Source of the DNA: a virus
Taxonomy: Duplodnaviria; Heunggongvirae; Uroviricota; Caudoviricetes
Virus record (IMG/VR): IMGVR_UViG_2778261178_000002
Length of the DNA: 36,637 nucleotides
Direction: 5' to 3' (one strand)
Position numbers and translations under genes: made by a program. The notes below the pieces were generated by a model. The model was given only the letters and a program-made list of their open reading frames with translations. It did not search any database and was not told where the DNA came from. This document shows, in pieces, positions 1,440-32,748 of this stretch. Each line of letters opens with the position of its first letter. Position 1 is the first letter of the stretch.

Positions 1440-1446
1440 CCGTTTC

Positions 1447-1533
1447 GCTGAAAAACATAACCCATAAAATGCTAGCTGTACCAGGAACCACCTCCTTAGC
1501 CTGTGTAATCTCCCTTACACGGGCTTATTTTTT
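1447..1533 (+). ncRNA. cyaR: CyaR (RyeE) Hfq-dependent small RNA
   Basis: 87-nt stretch GCTGAAAAACATAACCCATAAAATGCTAGCTGTACCAGGAACCACCTCCTTAGCCTGTGTAATCTCCCTTACACGGGCTTATTTTTT recognised from memory as CyaR; ends in stem-loop plus T6 terminator; located between yegQ and the ogr end of the prophage. Confidence 0.8.
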
Positions 1534-7047: not shown

Positions 7048-8238
7048 TTAATTGCTGTTAACCGAAGTGACCAGATTTGCCAGGTATTTATCGGTAATAC
7101 GCTGGCGCAGGGTCAGGTTTTCGAGAGGAGGCACCGGTGTATAGTCGTAGTCGATATACAGTTTTCCGGCCTTGAGGGTTTCCGCATCGTTGGATTCTTC
7201 GCTGAACCAGCAGGTCGCATCCACGATATAGCCGTTTGTTTTCAGCTCTCGGAATTTGGCATTGATGCCGTCAACGATGTCGCGAATCAGCGTTGCGGTG
7301 ATGGGCTTGTCCACCGCCCACATGTGCGCCTCAGCCATCGTGTCGGCCAGTACCTGCGCGGTGCGGGTGTAGTTTTCAAAGAGGAACAGCGGGTCATCAG
7401 AGCAGGTACGGTTACCCCAGAAGCGGAAACCGTCACGGCGAATCAGTGTTGTGACGCCTGACTCGTTAAGCAGGTCAGCATCGGTGCCGGACTCCTGCAA
7501 ATCCCAGAATACAGATGCGCTGATGCCGGTAACACCGTTCACCCCGACATTGGACAGCGTTTTATGCCAGCCCTGCTCCTGGTCGATTTTAGCGCGCAGA
7601 CCCAGCGCACGGGCGGTGGCATACGCGGTGGTGGTGGTACTGGTGACCGTATCCCATGCGAGGAAATCCGGCCAGATGACCATCAGCTCACGCTGGCTGA
7701 AATTCTGGCGGTAGGCTTTCACCTCGGAAATGGTTTTACAGCCCCATGCGCTGATATACCCGAAAGCGCGCAGCTTCTGACAGACTGATGCCAGTGCAAC
7801 AGCCACCTCTTTGGTATCCTGTCCCGGCACGCCGAGAATACGCGGTTTAACACCGGTTACCGACTCCGCCGCCAGCAGGGCTTTCAGTCCGGTGTACTGA
7901 CCGTTTTCGTCGGTGGTGCCGATGATATTGGAAACGGTCTGCGCAAGTTTCGTTTCTTCGTCGTCGCCGGTGCCGTCTTCCACGCGCACAACAACGGTGA
8001 CCGGTTTTGACTGGTCAGCGATGGCCTGTAACGACGCCGCCAGCGTGCCTTTTTTACCGGCCTTTGCAATTGCGCTCTGCACATTGGTAATCAGCACCGG
8101 TTTATTGAGGGGGAAGGTTTCCGCATCCGCATCGCTGGCCGTGCAGACCATGCCGACAATGGCAGTGGATACGGTGGAAATGACGCGGGTGCCGTCGTTA
8201 ATCTCCAGCACCTGCACGCCGTGATGATAGTCACTCAT
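7048..8238 (-). CDS. FI: Contractile tail sheath protein gpFI
   Basis: 396 aa, position and length as in P2. Confidence 0.85.
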   Translation of the reverse strand: MSDYHHGVQVLEINDGTRVISTVSTAIVGMVCTASDADAETFPLNKPVLITNVQSAIAKAGKKGTLAASLQAIADQSKPVTVVVRVEDGTGDDEETKLAQTVSNIIGTTDENGQYTGLKALLAAESVTGVKPRILGVPGQDTKEVAVALASVCQKLRAFGYISAWGCKTISEVKAYRQNFSQRELMVIWPDFLAWDTVTSTTTTAYATARALGLRAKIDQEQGWHKTLSNVGVNGVTGISASVFWDLQESGTDADLLNESGVTTLIRRDGFRFWGNRTCSDDPLFLFENYTRTAQVLADTMAEAHMWAVDKPITATLIRDIVDGINAKFRELKTNGYIVDATCWFSEESNDAETLKAGKLYIDYDYTPVPPLENLTLRQRITDKYLANLVTSVNSN

Positions 8239-8333: not shown

Positions 8334-8360
8334 TAAAGAAAAGGCGGGCAATTCGCCCGC
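8334..8360 (-). terminator. Rho-independent terminator downstream of cargo operon 1, upstream of the FI late promoter region
   Basis: GGCGGGC / GCCCGCC stem with AATTC loop, followed on the minus strand by a T-rich tract (TTTTCTTT). Confidence 0.55.
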
Positions 8361-8722
8361 CTGTCCTGATTTGTACTCACTCATTTTCCGCCTGACAATT
8401 TACATAGCCCAAAAGTTATCAAATCTGACAGTCTGCTTTGAGCGAAAAGCGGAAGTTCACCATTGACTCCAAGGGACGTATTTAAAGATCTTTTCAATAT
8501 TTTTGAATATATATCGAGCGTGTTTTTAATTTGAATAACCTTAATGAAAGTATAACAAAAAAATTAAAAGTAGTAACGTCAGTAAAACATTTCAAATATG
8601 ATTTAAAAGTGTTTATGAGTGCCGAAAATGGAGATCTATCCACAATGGATATGCATTGCATATCCATAATTCTTGAGTACAAACACCATCATGAGGTGGA
8701 CTCTTGCAGGCACAAAATCAAT

Positions 8723-9838
8723 TCAAATAAAATTAAATAACTCATGTTCATCTATAGCTTTTGATCCAATTAAATTCGCAGCTTCTATGTCATTATCATT
8801 TGTTTCCGAAATAAGGAAAAATGAATCAATATTATTTTGTAAAATGATTTTTTTATGCTTCTTAAGCCATTGTAATTTACTTGTAGTGAACAACACTCGG
8901 CGCGGTAGAAGAATACGACTAAAAACTGAGGGGAGATACTCACTTCTATTAAATTGAACAAAAGGATCACCAAAAGAAAGGATAGTTAGATGATTAAATT
9001 TACCGTGCAAATTCAATTTTTCAGCTGATTTAGCTATGCCACTTGGCAAAAAAACACCTGTCTTGATACCTTTACGTAAAGCAGTAACAGCCATCATTTT
9101 ATCGAAAGCAGTTCCACCAAAGAGCAATGAATACCCTTTCTTAACAGAAATATCAATAGTATCAAGGACAGCTTGCTTTTCTATATCGCTAGGTGATGTA
9201 CTCGAAATTATAGAAAGATCAAAGTCAGTAAATAGCTGCCCAGTATAATAAAGATTTTTGCTTGATAAAGTTGAAAGTTTTACCGGAAAGCTTTTATCAT
9301 CACGTCGAATTTCGGACACATTTAGATCCTTTAGCGATGGGTAGCTATGGTTTGGTGTGACTTTTTCTCGTTTATTATTTTTTGATGCTTGCGGGCTAAA
9401 AACCAAAATCTCATTTTTATTGTTAGATAGAGAATCTTGTATCATTTTTTTTACAATTTCCCAATCAAGACCGCCGTGGCCACAACCTAAAGCTGGTAGA
9501 GTGATAATTTTACCGTTCTTATGCTCCAAATAATTCGAGAGCCAAACCAGACCTTTTTCTATATATTCATACTTGGATTTATTTTTCCAATGATCCTTAG
9601 TAGGAAAATTTATGATCTCTATATCATTACCATACGCATCAGCATTTTTCCAAACTGCTGGTTTACCTGGGGATATGTCTCCTTTTTTACATAGCAATAC
9701 GTACTCATCATACATTTCGGGAAACTTGTTTTTAAAAGCAAAAGCTACCCCTGCCCCCATTACACCAACACAATTAACTGTATTGATTCTAATGTCAGCA
9801 GCATAATCAAAAAAATCACCATCAACGAATCTAATCAT
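8723..9838 (-). CDS. Macrodomain (ADP-ribose-binding/hydrolase, DarG-like N-terminus) fused to a C-terminal DprA/SMF-like domain; putative antitoxin/sensor partner
   Basis: N-terminus carries macrodomain motifs (NTVNCVGVMGAGVAFAF; ITLPALGCGHGG); C-terminus has a DprA-like glycine-rich stretch (LLFGGTAFDKMMAVTALRKG...FLPSGIAK); ATGA overlap with the upstream gene; AT-rich. Confidence 0.55.
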   Translation of the reverse strand: MIRFVDGDFFDYAADIRINTVNCVGVMGAGVAFAFKNKFPEMYDEYVLLCKKGDISPGKPAVWKNADAYGNDIEIINFPTKDHWKNKSKYEYIEKGLVWLSNYLEHKNGKIITLPALGCGHGGLDWEIVKKMIQDSLSNNKNEILVFSPQASKNNKREKVTPNHSYPSLKDLNVSEIRRDDKSFPVKLSTLSSKNLYYTGQLFTDFDLSIISSTSPSDIEKQAVLDTIDISVKKGYSLLFGGTAFDKMMAVTALRKGIKTGVFLPSGIAKSAEKLNLHGKFNHLTILSFGDPFVQFNRSEYLPSVFSRILLPRRVLFTTSKLQWLKKHKKIILQNNIDSFFLISETNDNDIEAANLIGSKAIDEHELFNFI

Positions 9839-11169
9839 AAATTCTCCTCAAGATAAGTATACATCCTTGCTCTTAATTCTTCAATTTTATCAATCCCATC
9901 TTTTACCCATGCTGTATTAATGGAATTCATATCGCATTTAGCAATTAGAATTAACATATCTACATCAGATTTTATCTTTATTATTTTTTGCATTTGCTCT
10001 TCGTTTCTTTCATGGGCTATTATATCCCCAACAAGATCATCGTAAACTACGAGTGTCACAATTTGCCTTATTTCCCTATTGGATAAATCACCTATTTCTT
10101 CACACAAAATTCTTTTAAGCATAGGTAACGATTTAATAGGATGAGTATCATCTACTTTTTGTACTCCATCTTTCCATCTAGATTTAGGTCCTTTGCCAAT
10201 ATCATGTAAATATGCAGCGAGCGTTACAACAAGTCGTTCTCTTTCCGATAAGTCGTGGAATGCAGACTCCGTATTAAGTAAGCTGGCAACTCTTCTGCTA
10301 TGTGCCCCAACATCCTCTCGGTGAATAGGATTATCTGTTTCAAGGCCATCAATATCAGAAAGTTCTTTTATACACCCAAAGTTATTGCTAATCGCTTCTA
10401 ACACATCTGCGATATTTTTAAATCTAGGGTTTAAAGGTTTATTTTGTTTTATATCACTTATATATTTTTTAGTCTTCGCAAGGAGAATCTTAGGTCCTGT
10501 AACAATATTCACCCGGCCTACCACATTTAAATCATGAAAGTAATGATGATCAAATGATCTAGAATCACAACGAACATCAAAATTATTAAACCCATATTTT
10601 TTCAATAGCTGTGCAACATGCGTTTTCACGCAAAGATTCCAAACAACAATAAATGAAAAATTATTGAAGGGAATTTCATCATGAATAAGCAACTCTGCCA
10701 TTTTTTGCTGTTTTACTCCTTCGGTCTTTGGGATCCACACTCTACTGTCAATTGCATCCCAATTTAGCTTATTTAAATCATCAGCATTAGAGTAAAATGT
10801 TGGTGGCGTTAAAGTATTTGCAGAAGAATTTGAAAAAACTACTGATTTATCTTCTATCGCCTCTATTGGTATCGCAAGATATATAATTCCTTCTTGATCT
10901 ACGTTTTTTTTCTTAATAACATTAAGTAACATGGGAGATCTTTTAGTGAAGTAAAAAGGCACATAATCATGGACCACTCCACCTGGACCACAAGTGACCC
11001 TCATTTCACTACGACGGTGTTGTATTTCATTATTTGCTATATCTTTATGAATAATGCCTCTATTTGATTTTAAATTTGTACTAAGTAATCCATTTTTTAT
11101 AATTCCCTCAAGATTATCAATGTATGTAAAATGATAAACAAACCTATCTGAGTATTGTGGTTTTATCAT
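9835..11169 (-). CDS. DarT-like ADP-ribosyltransferase domain (DUF4433-type) fused to a C-terminal HD phosphohydrolase domain; putative toxin/effector
   Basis: N-terminus YHFTYIDNL (His13), HRRSE, HDYVPFYF, and a candidate catalytic Glu in MAELLIHD (about residue 159), resembling DarT; C-terminus has HD-domain motifs (H in GAHSRRV, HD in YLHDIGKG, D in VYDDLVGD); strong SD AAGGAG before the ATG. Confidence 0.55.
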   Translation of the reverse strand: MIKPQYSDRFVYHFTYIDNLEGIIKNGLLSTNLKSNRGIIHKDIANNEIQHRRSEMRVTCGPGGVVHDYVPFYFTKRSPMLLNVIKKKNVDQEGIIYLAIPIEAIEDKSVVFSNSSANTLTPPTFYSNADDLNKLNWDAIDSRVWIPKTEGVKQQKMAELLIHDEIPFNNFSFIVVWNLCVKTHVAQLLKKYGFNNFDVRCDSRSFDHHYFHDLNVVGRVNIVTGPKILLAKTKKYISDIKQNKPLNPRFKNIADVLEAISNNFGCIKELSDIDGLETDNPIHREDVGAHSRRVASLLNTESAFHDLSERERLVVTLAAYLHDIGKGPKSRWKDGVQKVDDTHPIKSLPMLKRILCEEIGDLSNREIRQIVTLVVYDDLVGDIIAHERNEEQMQKIIKIKSDVDMLILIAKCDMNSINTAWVKDGIDKIEELRARMYTYLEENL

Positions 11170-11581
11170 TTACTCTCTCCTTAAAATTTAAAGTTTTATC
11201 TGTATAGATTTAGTCTCAACTGAATTAATAGTCTTTATTAATCATAATATTTAAATAATTAGGCTGCTTTTTTAATTGAACTATAAAGAATAAGCAACCC
11301 ACTCAATAAGATACACTTTATTTATTCTGGTGCAATATTAAAAACGCATAATAAGTGTCATTTTCATTGCTCGTGAATGCCATTACTCTTAAATCGTGAT
11401 CCGGTTCAAAATTTAGAGGCTGGAGCTGGTTGTGTTTAATGAAAAATTACAATTTTAATACGTCCGCTGTACACCCTTAGCTGCCGTTAGCTTAACGTCC
11501 GCAACAGGCACAGAGCGGACTGTCAGATTAGGCTTTACTCTGTACCATAGATATGTAAGCTCACACCAGAGTTCATACAAC

Positions 11582-12109
11582 TTATTGCGGCATTTCCGGC
11601 CATTCAGGATTTGCAGGATCCACACGACTGACCAGAACGCTGTAGCGTTCCCAAGCCTCCAGCCGTGTGCGCTCCTCCTCTGTTGCCATGTTCAGTCTGA
11701 CCGCGCGCTCCAGCGGCAAAATCACGGATTCAGCATCTGCAAGAAGTCTGGCTTTCCGGTTTTCTGCCTGCTGCTGCAATTCCTCTGCCGTATAAATGCG
11801 TTTAATCACTTTTCCGTCCTTAAACATCCAGCCCCCTGAAATGTCCGCCCGTCGGTTAGCAGTAATATCCGCCACTTCAACAACACTTAATCCATCCGGT
11901 CTGATAGCTGTCACATCCTTTTCCACATAGCGGATGATATTATCCTTGTCGTACGCTATTTTTATCGTGTCATCAGCAAAATACTTTTGTTCTTCGTACC
12001 AGTTCTTACCATCTTCTGAAAAAAACCAGACAACATCAAAATCCCTTGTCAATTGATATTGTTCAACCGTTTTTGGATTACCTGCCGTTATATTTATCAA
12101 ATGCTGCAT
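11582..12109 (-). CDS. G: Tail fibre assembly chaperone gpG
   Basis: 175 aa, immediately downstream of H. Confidence 0.8.
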
Positions 12110-12112
12110 AAA

Positions 12113-14431
12113 TTATACCTGCGCCACGTTATACCAAGTCCCGTTAATGTATTTCTGCACCGGTCTGTAATATACGCCACCAATGTTATCGGCAGAGTTT
12201 GAGCCGGTATCCTGAACAATAATGCCGGAATATACACACCCGGACGGTGCCTGATGTGTCCATGTCATGCCATTGTTCGCAGGTTTGTATGTGGCAGCAC
12301 CACCAAGCCGAATATCCCGGACATAGCGTGAATCAAAGTTGCCATAGTTAGATGGTGATACCTGCCCGTTAACAGCAAAAGTGATGCTGTTATCTGTATT
12401 TCTCTGACTGTAAAAATGCCAGCCTGCATCATCACCTAATTCAGCCACCACCGGACGACTTGAGTTTCCCCACAAATTGAATGCGGCTTCCTTCGTGGAT
12501 GTATTACTGCTGCTGACCGTGAATTTTTTCCCGCTACCGGCACGTACTTTGGTACTTGAGACAATATCACCAGTAACACTCAGGCCATGCCCCATTGATA
12601 CAGCACCCGTGGCATCATTTATAATCAGTGGTCTTAAATTATTATAAGTGCCTAATCTGTCACCTGATTTAGTCAACATAAAATAAGTGCTGCTGCCATC
12701 ATTCCTGATAAAGAATCCATAATTGCCATAAGCAATGCGCAGACCATTAGCACTGCTTGATGTAATCTCACCTCTTGAACGGAGACCATAAGCGGAGCTG
12801 AGTGATAATTCTTCCTGAGCATCAGTATTACCAGTCGCCCAGCGAACTACCCCGCCCTGTACTGTTTCATGCCAGATAGTGTCTCCTTCTCCACCACGAA
12901 ACTTTCTGAGATATTTTTTGCCGCCTCTGGTGCCTGAACATAAGGCCGTAGACATATAGGCATTCTGGCTTCCGCCATCCTGATTAATCGTTCCGGTCAT
13001 TGAGTCGCCCTGACGATTCCAGTCACGACGCCAGCCGGGGGAGTAGCCGTCCCCATGATTAATGTAAGTGAATTGCGCGCTGGTTGTACCGCCACCACTT
13101 GATGTTGTCGGCGTGGTCACTCGGATAGTGATTGCAGATTTAGTTCCCATGACCTCGACGACACAACCAGCCAGGTGGATATCACCACATCCGGTATCCG
13201 TAATGATTTTGTTATTTGCATATGACCAGGAGCCTTTGCACATCCAGTACGGATGATTAAATGCACCACGGGAATCCAGCCATTCAATAAACTGAGCGGT
13301 TGTCCAGTTTCCGGCTTCAGTGCTCAAAGCGCCGCTATAAGCACGACAGGCACCGATATTTTTCGTGAAGGTATCCTTTCCCGGAATATCCGCACCGTTC
13401 TGATCTTTCTGAAGACGTTTTTCAGCATTGTCATAGGCAGACTTCACTGCTTTTGGCGTTGCCGCGAGGGTTTCAGAATCACTGTTGGTGGCGCTACTGA
13501 GCTGGACAAGACCTTTTCGCGCCGTGGTGGCATCCTGTGCAGTGTATTTCCCGTTAGCAAGGTCATACGCTGTCTTAACCGCCTTTGGTGTTGCCGCAAG
13601 CGTTTCAGAATCGCTGTTGGTGGCGCTACTGAGCTGGACAAGACCTTTTCGCGCTGTAGTGGCGTCCTGTGCAGTGTATTTCCCGTTAGCAAGGTCATAC
13701 GCGGCCTTTACCGCTTTCGGCGTTGCGGCGAGCGTTTCAGACGTGCTGTTAGTCGCACTACTGAGCTGAACAAGGCCTTTTCGCGCGGTGGTGGCATCCT
13801 GCGCGGTATATTTCCCGTTAGCAAGGTCATAGGCGGTCTTTACCGCTTTCGGCGTTGCAGCCAGTGTTTCAGACGTGCTGTTGGTCGCACTGCTTAACTG
13901 AGTAAAACCTTTTGCGGTCAGCGAGGCGTCAGGGTGACGTCGTGACTGTTCATGTTCTGCAATTTTGTCATCAACGTAATCCTGCGTCGCCATCACCGTT
14001 GTGGTGTCAATGGTCAGCGCCACCGAGGCCACACTGCTGACGATGATGACCATGCGACAGGTCTGCGAACGCCCTGAGCCTTCGGCAAGAGCTGGCTTAT
14101 AACTTTCGGCCATGTTCGCCACGGCAATTAACGTTCCCGCATCATCGTACAGGCCAAGCTCACGCATCCAGAAACCGCCCACCTCCGGCGGAATAACCAG
14201 CTCTGCGATAATATAATTACTGTTTCGTTTGTCCTGGCTGATTTTGTTCAGCGTATGTCGCCAGACTTCGTGGATAAGCCCGGTCTGTCCGGCATCCGGG
14301 ACAGGCAATTTACCACCGCCATCCCCGACGGCCATCGTGGTAATGTTGACCTTCCGCCCTCCCGGTGCGGTTGCCGCTGCCAGCTTTGCTGCACCGGCAG
14401 TGGTGATAACGGTTCTGAATTTTGTGCTCAT
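12113..14431 (-). CDS. H: Tail fibre protein gpH, with internal tandem repeats
   Basis: 772 aa; position between I and G; contains about four tandem 44-aa repeats. Confidence 0.85.
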   Translation of the reverse strand: MSTKFRTVITTAGAAKLAAATAPGGRKVNITTMAVGDGGGKLPVPDAGQTGLIHEVWRHTLNKISQDKRNSNYIIAELVIPPEVGGFWMRELGLYDDAGTLIAVANMAESYKPALAEGSGRSQTCRMVIIVSSVASVALTIDTTTVMATQDYVDDKIAEHEQSRRHPDASLTAKGFTQLSSATNSTSETLAATPKAVKTAYDLANGKYTAQDATTARKGLVQLSSATNSTSETLAATPKAVKAAYDLANGKYTAQDATTARKGLVQLSSATNSDSETLAATPKAVKTAYDLANGKYTAQDATTARKGLVQLSSATNSDSETLAATPKAVKSAYDNAEKRLQKDQNGADIPGKDTFTKNIGACRAYSGALSTEAGNWTTAQFIEWLDSRGAFNHPYWMCKGSWSYANNKIITDTGCGDIHLAGCVVEVMGTKSAITIRVTTPTTSSGGGTTSAQFTYINHGDGYSPGWRRDWNRQGDSMTGTINQDGGSQNAYMSTALCSGTRGGKKYLRKFRGGEGDTIWHETVQGGVVRWATGNTDAQEELSLSSAYGLRSRGEITSSSANGLRIAYGNYGFFIRNDGSSTYFMLTKSGDRLGTYNNLRPLIINDATGAVSMGHGLSVTGDIVSSTKVRAGSGKKFTVSSSNTSTKEAAFNLWGNSSRPVVAELGDDAGWHFYSQRNTDNSITFAVNGQVSPSNYGNFDSRYVRDIRLGGAATYKPANNGMTWTHQAPSGCVYSGIIVQDTGSNSADNIGGVYYRPVQKYINGTWYNVAQV
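13424..13909. repeat. Tandem 132-bp coding repeats (about 3.7 copies) inside tail fibre gene H
   Basis: Repeated peptide GLVQLSSATNS[TD]SETLAATPKAVK[TAS]AYDLANGKYTAQDATTARK; the same periodicity shows in overlapping shadow ORFs on both strands. Confidence 0.8.
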
Positions 14432-26421: not shown

Positions 26422-28392
26422 TTAAAGGTCATCAATTAAACCTAAAGGCAAACCGTCCTCACCAACCGAGCTATAATGAGCGATAATATTCGAAAGTTCA
26501 CCAGTAGAAAACGAATTAGGCAAATCATTATCAACTAATATAATCTGGCACGGAACATTTTTTCTTTCTGCTTTTTGAACTGTATTCAATAGTTGTTCAT
26601 AAATATTTTGATACTTCATCGGATCTGACATTCCCTCAAGGTCATCCTCGACTGCAAGAGTTTCTTTTGAATATTTTTCCTTGGTCTGTTTCCCTAAATA
26701 TTTGCCAACCGTATCAAATATCAAAAGTAAAGGATGGTTAACATTATGATCTATTGCATAATCAAGAATAGACAAAAGATACCCAATAGAAGAAATAGTT
26801 CTCAAACCTCCGGATGTTATTTTAAAATATTCTTTTTCTCTTATAACAGGAATGTAATAGCTTTCAGAGATTTTTATCCCCGTTCTGTTTTTGATATTAA
26901 TACCCTTCAAATACTGACTAAATCTATCACCCAAACCTTGTAAAATGCCCTCCATGCTAGGTGCGTTTTTCTTTAACGCCTCCAAGCGTTCAGTTAATGC
27001 TTCAATATCTTTTCTCAGTACCTGATACTTTTCAAGCAGTTCCTCTTGCTGGTTTCTAACCTTCAAATCTTTTACTAACTGCTCCCTAACCTTCTCATTT
27101 TTTGATATCTCTTTAATATAAAAATCTCTCTGAGTCAAGAATGGTGTAATCATTGACTGGCTTTCTTCGTCAATCAATTCTCTCAACTCGTCAAGTCGTT
27201 CATCTAATTCTTTTTTATAACCTGATTCTTTTTTTAATTTAAATGACATTTCTGAGATCATGTCATTAATATTTCGTCTACGTCGACTAAGTGAATTCAA
27301 CTCTTCATTAAGATCTTTTTCTGATGAAATTTCAAATGGAAAATCAGAATCATCTATTTTAATGTGGCTATCACAGATTGGACAGGAAAATATTTCCTTA
27401 TCCAATACACCAATGCGAGAATTTGCTGTTTTAATCGCTTTAAGTTTTTCAATATCATTATCATAGTCATTTTTTAACCGCGAATATTTATCAATCTTAT
27501 CCTCAAGCGCACTAATATTTAATATGCACTCTTTGTATTTAAGCGAAATAAAATTGTGAGCATCTTTAAATTCTGTATACTGTATGGAATCCGCTTTCAT
27601 ATTTTTATCGAGAGCAGACAAACCTGCAACAAGTTCTTCTAAAACAAGATCTATCCTATTAATCTCATCATCAATTGATTCAATTGTTTCATAGTCTGTA
27701 TCGCGAAGAAATTCAGATATTATCTGATACTTCCTATTTAATTCCGTTACTAAACTACTTTTTGCAGATATTTCACCTTGGAGTCTGGCGATGCTTTCAT
27801 CCAACACATTGAACATGTATTTAAAAACTTCTTTCGTAAATGCGTAGCGGGACCAATCACCCAATCGCAAGAAAGATTTACTACCAATATCATCCTGACT
27901 TACATAAACAAATTTATATATATTTCTAAAACTTAACCTGCGCATCTGTGAATGCGCTTTAGAAGGAGACACCTTAATTTCAATCTTTGGAAAATTAAGA
28001 CTATCAAGTAAAAACTCCGAAAAAACACCATCAACATTTGATAATGGGCTATAATTAGGAGCGTATTTTTTCGGAAAATGTTTATGTAAATCATCAAACT
28101 TACAACGATAAACTTCTATTGCTTTTTTATGATCATAGATATCTCTTACGATTGTGAATACAGTATCATTGATCACTACTTCAAGAGCAGCATAGTTTAC
28201 TGATGTTTTTATTTCATCTGCTAAATCTATAGAGCTAGCACCTAAAAGATAATTAATAAACTCCAGAATGCTTGACTTACCTGTGTCAGAGTCTCCGTAG
28301 ATAACATTGAGACCTTTATAAAAAGTAGTGACGTAGTTTTTACGAACACCAACAAGAATCAAACTATTGATATTGAGATATGATTTCATCAT
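26422..28392 (-). CDS. SMC/Rad50-like ABC ATPase with long coiled coil (Lamassu LmuB-like / ABC-3C ATPase)
   Basis: N-terminal Walker A GDSDTGKSS; central coiled-coil-like region with a CxxC (FSCPICDSH) hook-like motif; C-terminal ABC signature TSGGLRT and Walker B LLLIFDT; SD AAGGAGAA; ATGA overlap with the upstream gene; AT-rich. Confidence 0.6.
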   Translation of the reverse strand: MMKSYLNINSLILVGVRKNYVTTFYKGLNVIYGDSDTGKSSILEFINYLLGASSIDLADEIKTSVNYAALEVVINDTVFTIVRDIYDHKKAIEVYRCKFDDLHKHFPKKYAPNYSPLSNVDGVFSEFLLDSLNFPKIEIKVSPSKAHSQMRRLSFRNIYKFVYVSQDDIGSKSFLRLGDWSRYAFTKEVFKYMFNVLDESIARLQGEISAKSSLVTELNRKYQIISEFLRDTDYETIESIDDEINRIDLVLEELVAGLSALDKNMKADSIQYTEFKDAHNFISLKYKECILNISALEDKIDKYSRLKNDYDNDIEKLKAIKTANSRIGVLDKEIFSCPICDSHIKIDDSDFPFEISSEKDLNEELNSLSRRRRNINDMISEMSFKLKKESGYKKELDERLDELRELIDEESQSMITPFLTQRDFYIKEISKNEKVREQLVKDLKVRNQQEELLEKYQVLRKDIEALTERLEALKKNAPSMEGILQGLGDRFSQYLKGINIKNRTGIKISESYYIPVIREKEYFKITSGGLRTISSIGYLLSILDYAIDHNVNHPLLLIFDTVGKYLGKQTKEKYSKETLAVEDDLEGMSDPMKYQNIYEQLLNTVQKAERKNVPCQIILVDNDLPNSFSTGELSNIIAHYSSVGEDGLPLGLIDDL

Positions 28393-28901
28393 TTCTCCTT
28401 GAAAACTTGATTTATAACAGAGTTTAACTTAGAGGTAGGCAATGCTTGTAGCGGTAACAATGCTTCGGATAGTCGTTTTATTTCTTTAAAATATCCATCA
28501 GTCAATGAGCTAGCAAATTCCTTACCTTTTTCAGATAAAAATAATTTAACACTCTCATTATTTTTTTTCTCAGCTGAGAGCAATCCCCGCAATGACATAA
28601 TTTTTATAAGATATTTCACTTTGGAATTGTCGAATAAGATATCTACATTTGATGAAAAACTCTTTATTGTATAAGTTAACTGGGACTCGACACAAGCAGG
28701 CTTTTTCCCCGAAATTGTAAGAGCATAATCAATTTTTGATGGGTTTTTTATCAGATACATAAAAATTTGTATTTTATTAATATCTAATGATAACACTCCT
28801 TTTTTGCTATGAGATAATATAGATATAGCAATGGCAAGCATAGCAAAATTCAAGCTATACTCTTCATCAAGAGGAATATACGGCAAGTTATTTTTCTTCA
28901 T
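28389..28901 (-). CDS. Small middle-component protein (LmuC-like), function unknown
   Basis: 170-aa ORF translationally coupled on both sides (14-nt overlap upstream, ATGA overlap downstream); SD GAGGT; no recognisable catalytic motif. Confidence 0.4.
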   Translation of the reverse strand: MKKNNLPYIPLDEEYSLNFAMLAIAISILSHSKKGVLSLDINKIQIFMYLIKNPSKIDYALTISGKKPACVESQLTYTIKSFSSNVDILFDNSKVKYLIKIMSLRGLLSAEKKNNESVKLFLSEKGKEFASSLTDGYFKEIKRLSEALLPLQALPTSKLNSVINQVFKEK

Positions 28902-30111
28902 GATTACCTCGCCGTAATTGCTCCAAAGTTTCTACGCTGGTTTCAGATGACCAGACAATATCTCTATCATTTTTGTTAGCCAGTTGATGCAACATTCCTT
29001 TCTTATGTATCGTTTCTAAACTTTTTATAAGAGAATCTAACGACGACTTATCCTCTTGGGCTATTCGTCTATGAACAGCAGCAATAAATTTATCTGGGGA
29101 AATTGAATTCGCGATATATTGCTCATACTCTTCCTGGTAAATCTCCCTTATTTTAGAATACAAATGACCAAGTAGTTTCCTATCGTAATCACTCGTAAAA
29201 ATATTTCTCGCAAGCTCAGCATTATAATAATATTCCTTTGCATGCATAGCGATATCCTGATGTATATCTGCGACAATCATTTTTAAGACGAAATACTCAT
29301 TATCATATTGTTTCTCATCAGAAAAACGCTCAACACATATCTTCTTGGGTGCTTCTAAATTTATCTGCTGAATAAATTGCTTTACCGCAACAAACACTGT
29401 AGACGAGCTGTTTTCGGGCTTGCAAATTGAGCTATGCCCTTCATTAACTGCAATTGAGTTATTTCGTTCACTATCCATCGGTAATGCGCTTTTTTTATCA
29501 ACTATAGTGTCATGAGAACCATAAACATATCTAGTGATAGGAAGTTTTTTGCTACAATTTATCCAGCGCCTATTCAATGTATCAGTCGCTTCACTTAACA
29601 ATCCAAGATCTACTAACTGAGCATTTGAAGATACCATTGAAGTTATATTCGCCAATTTAGCACCAAAGTGAGGGACTGCTAACGAAATGAATCCAATTAT
29701 ATTAGATTGTTCCTCATGCTCAACTTTTTTTAGAATTAGATTTTTTGATATTAACCCCCCCATACTATGGGCAATTATTATAATTCGAGAGTAATCACTT
29801 AGCGTTACCCTAATCTCAGTATACAATAACTCAGCTATTTCATCAGTTGGTAAATTTCTCTCTAACTTATTTTTCTTAGAGAAAATACGAGCCAATAATC
29901 CTGACGTTTTAGCATACGTTTGTGTAAATTTTGTGAAATAGTTGAAACATGCAATATCAAATACATTGCCAATGTCTTCATCTTCTGCTAATAGTTTTGG
30001 AAATGAAGTTTCTTTATTAAAGTTCCATGTTTCCAAACCACCATTTAATCCATGTACAAATAGTATCAGGCTATCTTTTTTCTCGTGGCTTATCCATTCA
30101 ACCATGCTCAT
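28888..30111 (-). CDS. Alpha/beta-hydrolase (lipase/esterase-like Ser-Asp-His) effector with C-terminal helical domain (LmuA-like)
   Basis: N-terminal LILFVHGLNGG, nucleophile elbow AHSMGG, candidate Asp (GSHDTIVD) and His (NEGHSS); C-terminal about 170 aa with no catalytic motif; first gene of a three-gene operon. Confidence 0.55.
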   Translation of the reverse strand: MSMVEWISHEKKDSLILFVHGLNGGLETWNFNKETSFPKLLAEDEDIGNVFDIACFNYFTKFTQTYAKTSGLLARIFSKKNKLERNLPTDEIAELLYTEIRVTLSDYSRIIIIAHSMGGLISKNLILKKVEHEEQSNIIGFISLAVPHFGAKLANITSMVSSNAQLVDLGLLSEATDTLNRRWINCSKKLPITRYVYGSHDTIVDKKSALPMDSERNNSIAVNEGHSSICKPENSSSTVFVAVKQFIQQINLEAPKKICVERFSDEKQYDNEYFVLKMIVADIHQDIAMHAKEYYYNAELARNIFTSDYDRKLLGHLYSKIREIYQEEYEQYIANSISPDKFIAAVHRRIAQEDKSSLDSLIKSLETIHKKGMLHQLANKNDRDIVWSSETSVETLEQLRRGNHEEK

Positions 30112-30200: not shown

Positions 30201-32483
30201 CTACCACTCACGCTGTCTGTCAAAAAAGTCGATATCGTTATCAAATTTAAAACGCTTATGCCCAAAATCCAAAACAGCTCCGCGAGCGAGAGCTTCAAGC
30301 TCCCAATAACTAGCCTGAATGTCACTTTGTGCAAGAAGAACCTTAATTTTCGGGATAGTCTTTCTCTCCTGTCTTGTCAACCGGGCGGATGGGGCAGGAA
30401 AGTAGCTTCGACCATTGAAAGGGGTAAAGCTCTGCTGTGAACGATTACTGCATTTCAGTTCATTACTCAATAAGTCTCTAAGTACCTTCATAATGCCTGG
30501 CTCGGTCCAACTTAGAATCCCTTCATCTATTAAATTTAACACCGCTGCAGCATGCTCAGTCGGTGTGGGTGCCGGTAACGAAGTATCACCACCGTTGAGC
30601 TTTCCACAGTTATTGACAGGACTCCGAGGCGCGGCGATGCCGCTTTTTAAAGTCAAAGGCTCAACGACCGGAACTTTCGGCACAATGCGCCAGTCCGTCG
30701 TTCTGGTGATATGAATATGACGCGCGCCGAGATGCGGCGCGTAAATGCCGACCACTCTCTCGACCTCTTCCTCGTACTCGTTAACGTCATCCGACGGGCT
30801 ACGGGCGACCCTGACAGTCTGACAATCGCGCGGGACATTTGCCCCACCCTGCGCGCTGATATACAGCGCAAAATCGCCACTGTCTGCGGCGGCGCGTGCA
30901 GCCTCCACGCGTTCGTCAAATTCATCAGCAATGCTGACGCCGCGAGGCAATTTACGTAGCTCACGGTAAGCTCCCATTGTCGGCAGGCCAACCGTTTTAA
31001 ATTGCGGGATGCGCCACGTTGACGCCCATGCGGTAACAGCCGCGGCAGTATCTTTCAGCGGTCTGCCGGTATCGTTATCGAGCTGACCATCCAGTGCATA
31101 GCCGTCGATATTTTTTGAAATGTATTTCGCGATATATCCCGCAGCACCGCCCCGGTTAAGGTGTTTTGCCTGAAAACGGTTTCGCGCGGCTCCTCTTTCG
31201 TCGCCATCCTCTTTGAGCGCATAGCGACGCATGATTTCGATAATCTGGTTACGCTGGCGTGGATTACAAAAAAGCATCATATGCCAGTGCGGCGTTCCGT
31301 CGTGGTGTGGCTCGACGACTCGCAAACCGTAGACCTGTAAATCATTATCCTTGAATGCCGTGCGCATCAGGCTCCAGATACGGCAGAGATAACGCTGCGC
31401 ATCCTTTGGATTAAATGCCTCATCATTCCAGCCGTGATTAAGCTGGACGGTTTTATTTTCGCCTTTTCCAACCTGACGTGTCGGGTGATACTTTGACGGC
31501 GCGGTAAGCGTGATAAACATCCCCACATCACCCTCTGAGGCGGCGTAACGCTCAATACCGGCAATGGTGTTCATCAGCTCCATCCGGCGAATTTCAGGAT
31601 TAGAAATACTGCCCATCACCTTACTGATAAGGTCGATGCGTTCGCCGGTTTCCCTGTTTTCAAGGTCACACGATTTAAGAAACTCCAGATTTGCCTGGCG
31701 GCGCGCACGCACATCACGAATGGCATGTTTACTGGCATAAGGAGAACGGTCTTTATTGACCTCCCCGACAGCAATCAGTAACGCCTCATGCCAGCGCATA
31801 CGCTGGCCTTTAAGCTGATGAGTCCACCACTCATCGTTAAACAGGCGGGCAATGGCAGAATATGCCTGCCTCGTGGTCATCTGCCCTTTACGGTATTTTC
31901 TCCAGTAAAGCGGAGAAATATTGAAAGCACGTGCAGCGCCAGCAACATGACCATACAGGTGAGCCTGCGCCTCATCCGTAAACAGCGATTCTTTTTCGCC
32001 ATGCGCATCCACCCAGGCATCGCAGAGTTCCTCATACATCATGAAAAGCTGCGATGAGATTCGGGCGGCAAACTTTTTCAGCTCCTTGTCATTCATCCCC
32101 GGCAGGCGCGCATACTGGTCGCGCTCTGCCAGAAACAGCAACGACGCGTCGGTGTTCATTTCATGGCGCTGATTCACACGCTCAATGCGCGGCCATAAAC
32201 GACGCTGAAAAGTGGATGTGAGGAAATAAAACCCGTGCACCGGGCTTTTATTGCGCCGGATGTAGTCATAGCGTGAAGTAAACAGCGAGCGCAAAAAGTA
32301 AGGCAGGCGGTTAATCGTGGATAAAACACCTTGCACCTGACGCATCTCGTCACGTGTAAGGGGTCTTTCGCGCCCGACAGCCTCGCGTGGCGCGTTCCAT
32401 GCATAAGCACCGGTAAACGCCTTACCGGTGCCTGCGGCAAATGCTGACGGAGGGACAAAACGCCCGGAGGCTTTAACGGCCAT
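30201..32483 (-). CDS. A: Replication initiation protein gpA (rolling-circle nicking endonuclease)
   Basis: About 760 aa from ATG at 32481..32483 (MAVKASGRF...); the ORF track's 774-aa version uses an upstream TTG; position as in P2. Confidence 0.8.
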   Translation of the reverse strand: MAVKASGRFVPPSAFAAGTGKAFTGAYAWNAPREAVGRERPLTRDEMRQVQGVLSTINRLPYFLRSLFTSRYDYIRRNKSPVHGFYFLTSTFQRRLWPRIERVNQRHEMNTDASLLFLAERDQYARLPGMNDKELKKFAARISSQLFMMYEELCDAWVDAHGEKESLFTDEAQAHLYGHVAGAARAFNISPLYWRKYRKGQMTTRQAYSAIARLFNDEWWTHQLKGQRMRWHEALLIAVGEVNKDRSPYASKHAIRDVRARRQANLEFLKSCDLENRETGERIDLISKVMGSISNPEIRRMELMNTIAGIERYAASEGDVGMFITLTAPSKYHPTRQVGKGENKTVQLNHGWNDEAFNPKDAQRYLCRIWSLMRTAFKDNDLQVYGLRVVEPHHDGTPHWHMMLFCNPRQRNQIIEIMRRYALKEDGDERGAARNRFQAKHLNRGGAAGYIAKYISKNIDGYALDGQLDNDTGRPLKDTAAAVTAWASTWRIPQFKTVGLPTMGAYRELRKLPRGVSIADEFDERVEAARAAADSGDFALYISAQGGANVPRDCQTVRVARSPSDDVNEYEEEVERVVGIYAPHLGARHIHITRTTDWRIVPKVPVVEPLTLKSGIAAPRSPVNNCGKLNGGDTSLPAPTPTEHAAAVLNLIDEGILSWTEPGIMKVLRDLLSNELKCSNRSQQSFTPFNGRSYFPAPSARLTRQERKTIPKIKVLLAQSDIQASYWELEALARGAVLDFGHKRFKFDNDIDFFDRQREW

Positions 32484-32748
32484 ATGAGCCAAAAGCCTCT
32501 GAACAACGCCTGCTGAGTTGCTCAACCTGCGCGTTTAAATCAGCAAAAGACTTTGCGCTTCCGGTCAGAATATCGTGATGCATCAGGCCGGAAACGAGCT
32601 GGCTTAATTTCGGATAATAACCAACCACCGCCAGCCATTCCTGACCGGCGTTTTTACCGCTTTCCGCTCTCTTTTTCTCGTGGAGAATAAACTGAAAGCT
32701 GTCACTGGTAACGACATAACGTTCGCCAATTTCAATACGAATACTCAT
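32473..32748 (-). CDS. Hypothetical early protein (P2 orf83-like position)
   Basis: 91-aa ORF in the early operon upstream of A; no recognisable motif. Confidence 0.5.
   Translation of the reverse strand: MSIRIEIGERYVVTSDSFQFILHEKKRAESGKNAGQEWLAVVGYYPKLSQLVSGLMHHDILTGSAKSFADLNAQVEQLSRRCSEAFGSYGR

Follow-up and report, generated by a model that had tools for sequence, protein, structure and literature searches.

Between the tail genes of a P2-like prophage lies a pair of genes related to DarTG toxin-antitoxin systems, both of which depart from the canonical domain architecture. The prophage is contained in a stretch of 36,637 nucleotides (IMG/VR record IMGVR_UViG_2778261178_000002, Caudoviricetes), the whole of which is called the window below. 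Gene 1 (9835..11169, minus strand) encodes a predicted DarT-HD toxin of 444 amino acids, and gene 2 (8723..9838, minus strand) a predicted DarG-type antitoxin of 371 amino acids with a macrodomain and a DprA-like domain. The stop codon TGA of gene 1 overlaps the ATG of gene 2 in an ATGA (9835..9838, minus strand), an arrangement typical of translational coupling. The minus strand at the junction reads ...GAGGAGAATTTATGATTAGA (in longer form GAGGAGAATTTATGATT), with GAGGAG just upstream; overlapping or abutting gene junctions are frequent among related loci. A Shine-Dalgarno sequence AAGGAG (11177..11182, minus strand) lies 7 nt ahead of the ATG of gene 1. The gene coordinates and the overlap, taken from the list of open reading frames (ORFs) and the minus-strand sequence, are the same as in a preliminary description of this DNA, which had proposed a non-canonical four-domain, DarTG-like module in visibly AT-rich DNA. 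The base composition bears this out, as the GC content is 0.29-0.36 over positions 8500-11500 (about 32% at the gene pair) vs about 0.55 in both flanks.

The N-terminal part of gene 1 (residues 12-203; 10561..11136, minus strand) is a DarT ADP-ribosyltransferase (ART) domain. It matches Pfam PF14487 (DUF4433) at 5.8e-47, the PADLOC DarT model at 7.8e-53, the NCBIfam toxin_DarT equivalog at 158.2 bits (cut-off 150) and the Thermus DarT chain of PDB 7OMV at 3e-25. The motifs on which a DarT-like N-terminus had been proposed (YHFTYIDNL, HDYVPFYF and MAELL) are all present in the translation, and the candidate catalytic glutamate is residue 159. E159 (10693..10695) aligns with the E160 position of 7OMV, which is an alanine in the crystallised mutant, and R52/R53 (11011..11016) align with R51/R52 of the same chain. 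The E160A substitution renders Taq DarT non-toxic (PMC5179494). Conservation was analysed over 63 DarT-HD sequences and 48 macro-DprA proteins; E159 and R53 are invariant in all 63 of the former.

The remainder of the protein is an HD phosphohydrolase region (residues 225-444; 9838..10497, minus strand), which makes the toxin about twice as large as canonical DarT (206-218 amino acids), as had been suggested. The Pfam HD core covers residues 288-391 (1.6e-6; 28.8 bits, cut-off 22), and H322 and D323 of the HD motif are encoded at 10201..10206 (minus strand). The domain shows the HD fold with the H...HD...D metal ligands; H322, D323, K326, Y376, R388 and D413 are invariant in 63/63 DarT-HD sequences, and H290, H343 and D378 each occur in 62 of them. 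Residues 196-444 were modelled with AlphaFold with the help of 25 family sequences at a pLDDT of 88.6; the inter-domain linker, which makes up the first 28 residues of the model, is disordered. The HDIG, Cas3-HD and CCA-enzyme models matched this half of gene 1 below threshold. A Foldseek search with the model reproduced no close relative (best E 0.017, PDE9A). A closer HD relative was also sought by comparing the family profile with PDB sequences; the matches, SAMHD1-like at 0.018 and HD-GYP at 0.09-0.2, were marginal, and the domain is therefore assigned to superfamily level only. By its sequence it is a predicted metal-dependent phosphohydrolase of the HD superfamily with intact catalytic residues.

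Gene 2 starts with a DarG-type macrodomain (residues 1-150; 9389..9838, minus strand), in agreement with the preliminary description. It matches the Pfam Macro family at 1.8e-15, the PADLOC DarG model at 6.4e-58 and the DarG macrodomains of PDB 5M3I and 5M31 (M. tuberculosis, T. aquaticus) at about 6e-31. The catalytic-type lysine of the FPTK motif, K81 (9596..9598), is present and invariant in 48/48 macro-DprA proteins. The similarity to DarG is confined to the N-terminal part: the PADLOC DarG profile aligns over positions 1-159 of 329 only, and the NCBIfam profile over 1-208 of 338 only. The conserved Gly-rich loop of the macrodomain reads LGCGHGG (residues 117-123; 9470..9490), with C119 found in 46/48 and H121 in 48/48 clade members, and the three aligned canonical DarG macrodomains carry LG[AV]GNGG at this position. 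LGCGHGG is thus a clade signature.

The C-terminal part of gene 2 (residues ~170-371; 8726..9331, minus strand) is a DprA-like domain of the SLOG-superfamily Rossmannoid type. The earlier suggestion of a DprA/SMF-like C-terminus is upheld by the relatives of the window protein and by structure. The window protein itself scores below the gathering threshold of Pfam PF02481 (15.7 bits vs 29.6; E 0.009-0.024), unlike its DarT, HD and macro matches, which all lie far beyond chance level. Of 29 diverse family members, 16 match the PF02481 profile at E<=0.1, the best of them at 5.4e-7. The AlphaFold model for residues 150-371 (pLDDT 90.1, pTM 0.87) displays a DprA-type Rossmannoid fold, and E220 and S288 are each conserved in 47/48 macro-DprA proteins. 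The closest solved structural relative is ShosA, with a sequence identity of 15%. As modelled, the tail is a distant relative of DprA in the SLOG-type Rossmannoid group, not a DprA orthologue. The ShosA antitoxin has ssDNA (single-stranded DNA) and RecA as binding partners, but not its toxin (PMC12961424, PMC11961720). In ShosTA, the DprA-like ShosA is paired with a phosphoribosyltransferase (PRTase) toxin, ShosT, whereas in the window a macrodomain is joined to the DprA-like domain, and Pfam, PADLOC and NCBIfam scans of the gene pair revealed no PRTase domain.

Comparison with seven canonical pairs (E. coli STEC1012, Haliscomenobacter, Zymomonas, Sulfitobacter, Meiothermus, Bacillus cereus and Mycobacterium) delimits what is shared with DarTG2. 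Common to both are a DarT domain with catalytic Glu and Arg, a DarG-type macrodomain with the conserved Lys, the order darT-then-darG, overlapping genes and a mobile-element and defence context; the canonical darTG of E. coli STEC1012 sits inside a type I restriction-modification operon. In the canonical pairs DarT is ~200-218 amino acids long and lacks an HD domain, and DarG has 341-360 amino acids; the window toxin is twice as long as canonical DarT because the HD domain is fused to it. On the antitoxin side, the canonical C-terminal domain of DarT-binding type is missing and the DprA-like domain stands in its place. The canonical E. coli DarG is 37% identical to the window antitoxin over residues 1-165, where the BLASTP alignment ends, and the family profile of the window C-terminus gave an hhalign probability of 0.1% against the C-terminal domain of that DarG. 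Against 15 canonical-type DarG C-terminal domains the window tail gave 0.1-0.4%, i.e., no detectable similarity, and nothing DprA-like was detected in nine canonical-type DarGs. The two types differ also in the macrodomain loop (LGCGHGG in the window vs LGAGNGG in canonical DarG), and the window-type DarT domains fall in a clade separate from the short DarTs. The claimed departure from canonical DarTG is therefore borne out by the HD-bearing toxin and by the undetectable similarity to the DarG C-terminus. A classification of the canonical DarG tail as a Panacea domain was also considered; only 2 of 9 DarGs matched, below threshold (E 5e-4 and 1e-3), and that tail is consequently described only as unrelated to DprA. 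Two reports on other DarG2 proteins describe the C-terminal domain as the DarT-interacting part, which occludes the DNA site of the toxin (PMC11825919; PMC10760071, the latter with reference to Deep et al. 2023).

The architecture is not confined to the window. Protein searches recovered more than 120 clusters of full-length DarT-HD relatives (~445 amino acids, 42-95% identity) and a matching set of ~376-amino-acid macro proteins in genera such as Klebsiella, Citrobacter, Cronobacter, Vibrio, Pseudomonas, Serratia, Aeromonas and Shewanella. The longest contigs recorded for the toxin and for the antitoxin are in many cases equal in length. An exhaustive HD-family profile search over 1.84 billion representative proteins returned 74 representatives with E<=1e-30; at E<=1e-10 the number rises to 121. 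Those longer proteins that were checked all still contain DarT-HD, as LRR-DarT-HD (LRR, leucine-rich repeat), as Sel1-DarT-HD or with extra N-terminal or internal sequence. In two proteins, P0243 (932 amino acids) and P0306 (597 amino acids), LRR and Sel1 repeats, respectively, stand ahead of DarT-HD, which resembles immune sensor-effector fusions.

A scan of one genome per species for the HD family gave 54 loci, which were scored with hidden Markov models of the four domains and with ORF lengths measured from stop to stop. As the loci were found through HD-motif patterns (HDIGKGPK and similar), divergent members are under-sampled. The loci span Gamma- and Alphaproteobacteria, Desulfobacterota, Bacteroidota, Bacillota, Chloroflexota, Acidobacteriota, a bacterium of the candidate phyla radiation (CPR) and two archaeal metagenome-assembled genomes (MAGs). 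The HD domain is fused to an N-terminal DarT in 51 of them; the HD ORF is cut by the contig end in two, and the HD match is weak in one. The next gene encodes a macro + DprA-like protein of ~375-425 amino acids at 26 loci, the same with a long extension at eight, a macrodomain with another tail at nine and a short DarT followed by a macro gene at eight, and no macro gene was found at three. Thus a macro gene directly follows DarT-HD in 43/54 loci, and its tail is clearly DprA-like in 34 of these 43 and possibly in up to 41: among the nine other tails, three matched the DprA-like profile with hhalign probabilities of 83-88% and four with 10-19%, over 157-195 columns. Conversely, a DprA-like tail was found in none of 15 DarGs encoded after a short DarT (seven canonical, eight Bacteroidales; hhalign probability <=0.4%). 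A reverse search of viral contigs, starting from the DprA-like tail, revealed DarT-HD upstream in 8/8 assessable loci. Additionally, in a simple neighbour-joining tree with a comparison group of 15 short DarTs, the DarT domains of the fusion proteins form a single clade apart from the short ones. The near-invariance of ART, HD and macro residues across phyla points to strong purifying selection on all three sites. Rather than a one-off, the architecture marks a conserved clade with members in many bacterial phyla and some archaea.

Two variants of the locus deserve mention. In Clostridia, Desulfobacterota, Chloroflexota, Euryarchaeota and CPR (loci L013, L016, L023, L037, L039 and L055), DarT-HD is followed by a protein of 1300-1500 amino acids that starts with macro + DprA-like domains. 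The two long extensions that were scanned with Pfam (L013, L023) contain DUF1156 and an N6-adenine DNA methyltransferase, linking the macro-DprA antitoxin module to restriction-modification or BREX-like machinery. In Bacteroidales and Fibrobacter MAGs and genomes (L030, L032, L041, L042 and L051-L054), DarT-HD is followed by a short DarT of canonical size and a macro gene without a DprA-like tail, and both DarT copies keep their domains.

In the window, the module occupies the position between the genes for the tail sheath FI (7048..8238), with the tube FII beyond, and for tail-fibre assembly G (11582..12109), with the fibre H beyond. This location, suggested earlier as the Z/fun slot of P2, is backed by the flanking ORFs, the RefSeq annotation of an identical prophage and the P2 reference map. 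On that map fun(Z) lies between G and FI in phage P2 itself and is annotated as non-essential and as blocking T5; it is on the strand opposite the late genes, whereas the window cargo has the orientation of G and FI. Other P2-like phages in the phage collection match the query in its flanks only (5% coverage) and carry different inserts between them; the records of the variable region of P2-EC30 and P2-EC58 are among those with other inserts.

The mobile unit is larger than the two genes. A cassette of 3092 bp (8429..11520, minus strand), consisting of a leader, both genes and a 3' tail, is 96% identical at the DNA level to a segment of the Klebsiella pneumoniae IncF (IncFIA/FII/R) plasmid p4-KP21300, beside repE, where its neighbours include other toxin-antitoxin genes. 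The shared stretch comprises 350 bp of leader, both genes and 294 bp of tail. The full cassette is identical in 3/5426 complete E. coli genomes, in the same P2 slot, and in two IMG/VR P2-like contigs. The AT-rich leader upstream of gene 1 (11170..11520, minus strand), which travels with the cassette, presumably holds the module's own promoter. Sigma-70-like matches are present at 11377..11348 and 11361..11334, but do not pinpoint the promoter, since promoter-like sites in the leader are no commoner than in shuffled sequence. An AT-rich 3' tail of 360 bp (8363..8722, minus strand) separates the stop codon of gene 2 from an intrinsic-terminator-like hairpin and contains no convincing ORF, only small TTG-start ORFs. 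Its positions 8429..8722 are ~96% conserved in the Klebsiella plasmid copy and are therefore part of the cassette. The hairpin (8342..8362, minus strand), whose 9-bp stem contains 7 G-C pairs and precedes a run of T, stands before the FI leader; within the cassette no RNA family was found by Rfam. A related module is present in E. coli MDR_56 (NZ_CP019903.1, 5003..9715) beside an e14-type integrase at icd, with an antitoxin gene 83% identical to that of the window. There, IS50R splits the DarT-HD gene into DarT and HD fragments, and the macro-DprA gene is intact. At least six further E. coli genomes of avian or human origin have the same 83% antitoxin match.

Homology and genomic context suggest a defence or toxin-antitoxin role for the window pair. 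We favour, with a probability of about 0.7, the view that it is a two-gene toxin-antitoxin/anti-phage module of the DarTG2 (macrodomain) lineage, carried as lysogenic-conversion cargo in the Z/fun slot of P2. The DarT domain of gene 1 would ADP-ribosylate thymidine in ssDNA in an NAD+-dependent reaction via E159, and the modification would block replication of the infecting phage and, if unchecked, of the host. In uninfected cells the macrodomain of gene 2 would remove the ADP-ribosyl mark. The HD domain might add a second, phosphoesterase activity on the same substrate, be it ssDNA or the ADP-ribosyl-DNA adduct. Candidate activities are adduct processing (cf. SidE), ssDNA cleavage (cf. Cas3-HD) and nucleotide hydrolysis or sensing. 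SidE-family effectors of Legionella likewise unite a mono-ADP-ribosyltransferase and a phosphodiesterase (PDE) in one polypeptide; they act on ubiquitin, whereas the window toxin is by homology DNA-directed. The structural match of the HD domain to SidE is no better than that to generic HD/PDE folds, and the analogy is a lead only. The DprA-like domain could take the macrodomain to ssDNA, and possibly to RecA, in the way of ShosA, or counteract the HD activity there, and each toxin domain would then be matched by one antitoxin domain. By analogy with ShosA, the closest solved DprA-like relative, the antitoxin of the window may target ssDNA, on which DarT acts, instead of the toxin itself.

Several observations weigh against this reading. 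Gene 2 falls short of the cut-off of the NCBIfam DarG equivalog (228.6 bits vs 250). That gene 1 targets thymidine is an assumption drawn from its association with a macrodomain, since DarTs that go with macrodomains modify thymidine (PMC11543638). At eight Bacteroidales loci, a complete short DarT and a canonical-type DarG without a DprA-like domain lie downstream of DarT-HD. The pairing of HD with DprA is therefore not obligatory, and these three-gene loci weaken models in which the DprA-like domain is indispensable.

The pair could alternatively be an ordinary DarTG2 system that follows the canonical mechanism, with the HD and DprA-like domains as passive appendages of structural or regulatory character and the toxin bound directly by the DprA-like domain. 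The matches of both proteins to the PADLOC DarT and DarG models, the RefSeq naming of gene 1 and the gene order and coupling, which are those of canonical DarTG, fit this explanation, and toxin-binding domains of antitoxins are known to be exchangeable. We consider it unlikely, as the metal-ligand residues of the HD domain are kept in 62-63 of 63 sequences, from bacterial phyla and archaea alike, which argues for catalysis over a scaffold, and ShosA, the closest structural relative of the DprA-like domain, neutralises without toxin binding (PMC12961424). The HD domain is by inference an active enzyme, with a function tied to DarT, since the HD subfamily was found solely fused to it. This function might be that of a Cas3-like ssDNA nuclease, in which case DarT would bind or mark ssDNA and the DprA-like domain would protect ssDNA or promote RecA-dependent repair. 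The Cas3 HD matches that point in this direction are marginal (PADLOC 1e-3 and 5e-3; TIGR01596 0.02), DarT and DprA-like domains are both ssDNA-directed (PMC12961424), and a nuclease of this kind seems to us a doubtful rather than a leading explanation.

A further proposal combines a two-step modification with a two-step eraser: DarT would ADP-ribosylate thymidine and the HD domain, as a phosphodiesterase, would split the pyrophosphate of the ADP-ribose and release AMP, leaving phosphoribosyl-thymidine, while the macro and DprA-like domains would deal with both adducts. The chemistry would be parallel to that of SidE-type enzymes. LOG enzymes, members of the SLOG superfamily, are phosphoribohydrolases that cut base-ribose-5-phosphate bonds. 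The phosphoribosyl-thymidine adduct would resist phage-encoded macrodomain or NADAR anti-DarT enzymes, and the GCGHGG macrodomain and the DprA-like domain would handle the two adducts or target them on ssDNA. If true, this scheme would explain the frequent co-occurrence of the HD and DprA-like domains; we nevertheless hold it to be distinctly improbable. Finally, the module might serve chiefly for addiction, stabilising the plasmids and prophages that carry it, with no part in phage defence. In line with such a role, the same cassette neighbours repE on an IncF plasmid and has other toxin-antitoxin genes around it there, and the original description of DarTG was that of a toxin-antitoxin system (PMC5179494). 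Nevertheless, it sits here in a prophage slot whose occupant in P2 blocks T5, Lamassu is present in the other hotspot of the same prophage, and relatives carry fused LRR or Sel1 repeats or methyltransferases of restriction-modification type, so that addiction as the chief function appears very improbable. Addiction and defence roles are compatible with each other.

PADLOC matches the two window proteins with its DarT and DarG models. In RefSeq, gene 1 is called DarT or DarT-family, and gene 2 goes by the name of a macro domain-containing protein only; the system would thus be filed as DarTG, not missed. Known DarTG2 systems ADP-ribosylate thymidine and defend against phage (PMC11543638, PMC11825919). 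The literature compared included DarTG biochemistry, structure and reviews, the Aravind-group survey of NAD/ADP-ribose systems, the P2/P4 hotspot paper and a 2026 domain-centric screen. DarTG2 is known from Thermus, M. tuberculosis and EPEC, and E. coli DarTG is reportedly a defence system according to LeRoux et al. 2022. No description of a DarT-HD fusion or a macro-DprA DarG was found in the DarTG literature covered, which excludes LeRoux et al. 2022 and Deep et al. 2023. The V. cholerae DarTG (PMC10760071) was considered as a possible case of the same architecture and set aside, as its DarG has 347 amino acids and an HD domain is not mentioned. DarHTG/DarG3, reported in the 2026 screen (Liu et al., NAR 2026, PMC13069673), is likewise a recent departure from DarTG, in which a module has been gained and the antitoxin is non-canonical; it differs from the window pair in having a separate UvrD-like helicase and an ARH-type glycohydrolase, and no HD domain, macrodomain or DprA-like domain. 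The preliminary description had regarded the four-domain combination as undescribed. This stands insofar as no paper describing it was found, and has to be tempered insofar as the PADLOC DarT and DarG models match both proteins and the clade is widespread. Judged from sequence, the pair is a conserved, uncharacterised DarTG variant whose core chemistry is very likely the known one.

To our knowledge, DarTG is among the few defence systems that act by chemical modification of DNA bases. The clade described here points to biochemistry beyond the described cycle of ADP-ribosyl-thymidine formation and removal; the processing of adducts, the cleavage of DNA and the sensing of nucleotides are possibilities. 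The exchange of the antitoxin C-terminus for a DprA-like domain points to a possibly different way of restraining the toxin. Additionally, a named cargo type is added to the Z/fun slot of P2, with the same 3.1-kb cassette on prophage and plasmid. The system is compact, consisting of two genes in 2.4 kb, and comes from E. coli. DarTG is under study as an antibacterial target and a genome-editing tool (PMC13368585).

The prophage carries a second AT-rich island (26422..30111, minus strand; GC ~0.31-0.35) with a three-gene Lamassu / ABC-3C system. Its LmuA (407 amino acids) contains an alpha/beta-hydrolase (DUF676/PGAP1-like) effector domain and CTD8, LmuC (170 amino acids) matches MC4, and LmuB (656 amino acids) matches at 6e-235. 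With replication gene A (30201..32525) on one side and the portal gene on the other, the island occupies the second known defence hotspot of P2. The window contains no tRNA genes; a CyaR/RyeE small RNA at 1445..1530 on the plus strand (Rfam, 100.7 bits) probably marks host DNA beside one end of the prophage. The translated tail fibre H (12113..14431, minus strand) contains four tandem copies of a ~44-amino-acid motif, …GLVQLSSATNS[TD]SETLAATPKAVK.AYDLANGKYTAQDATTARK….

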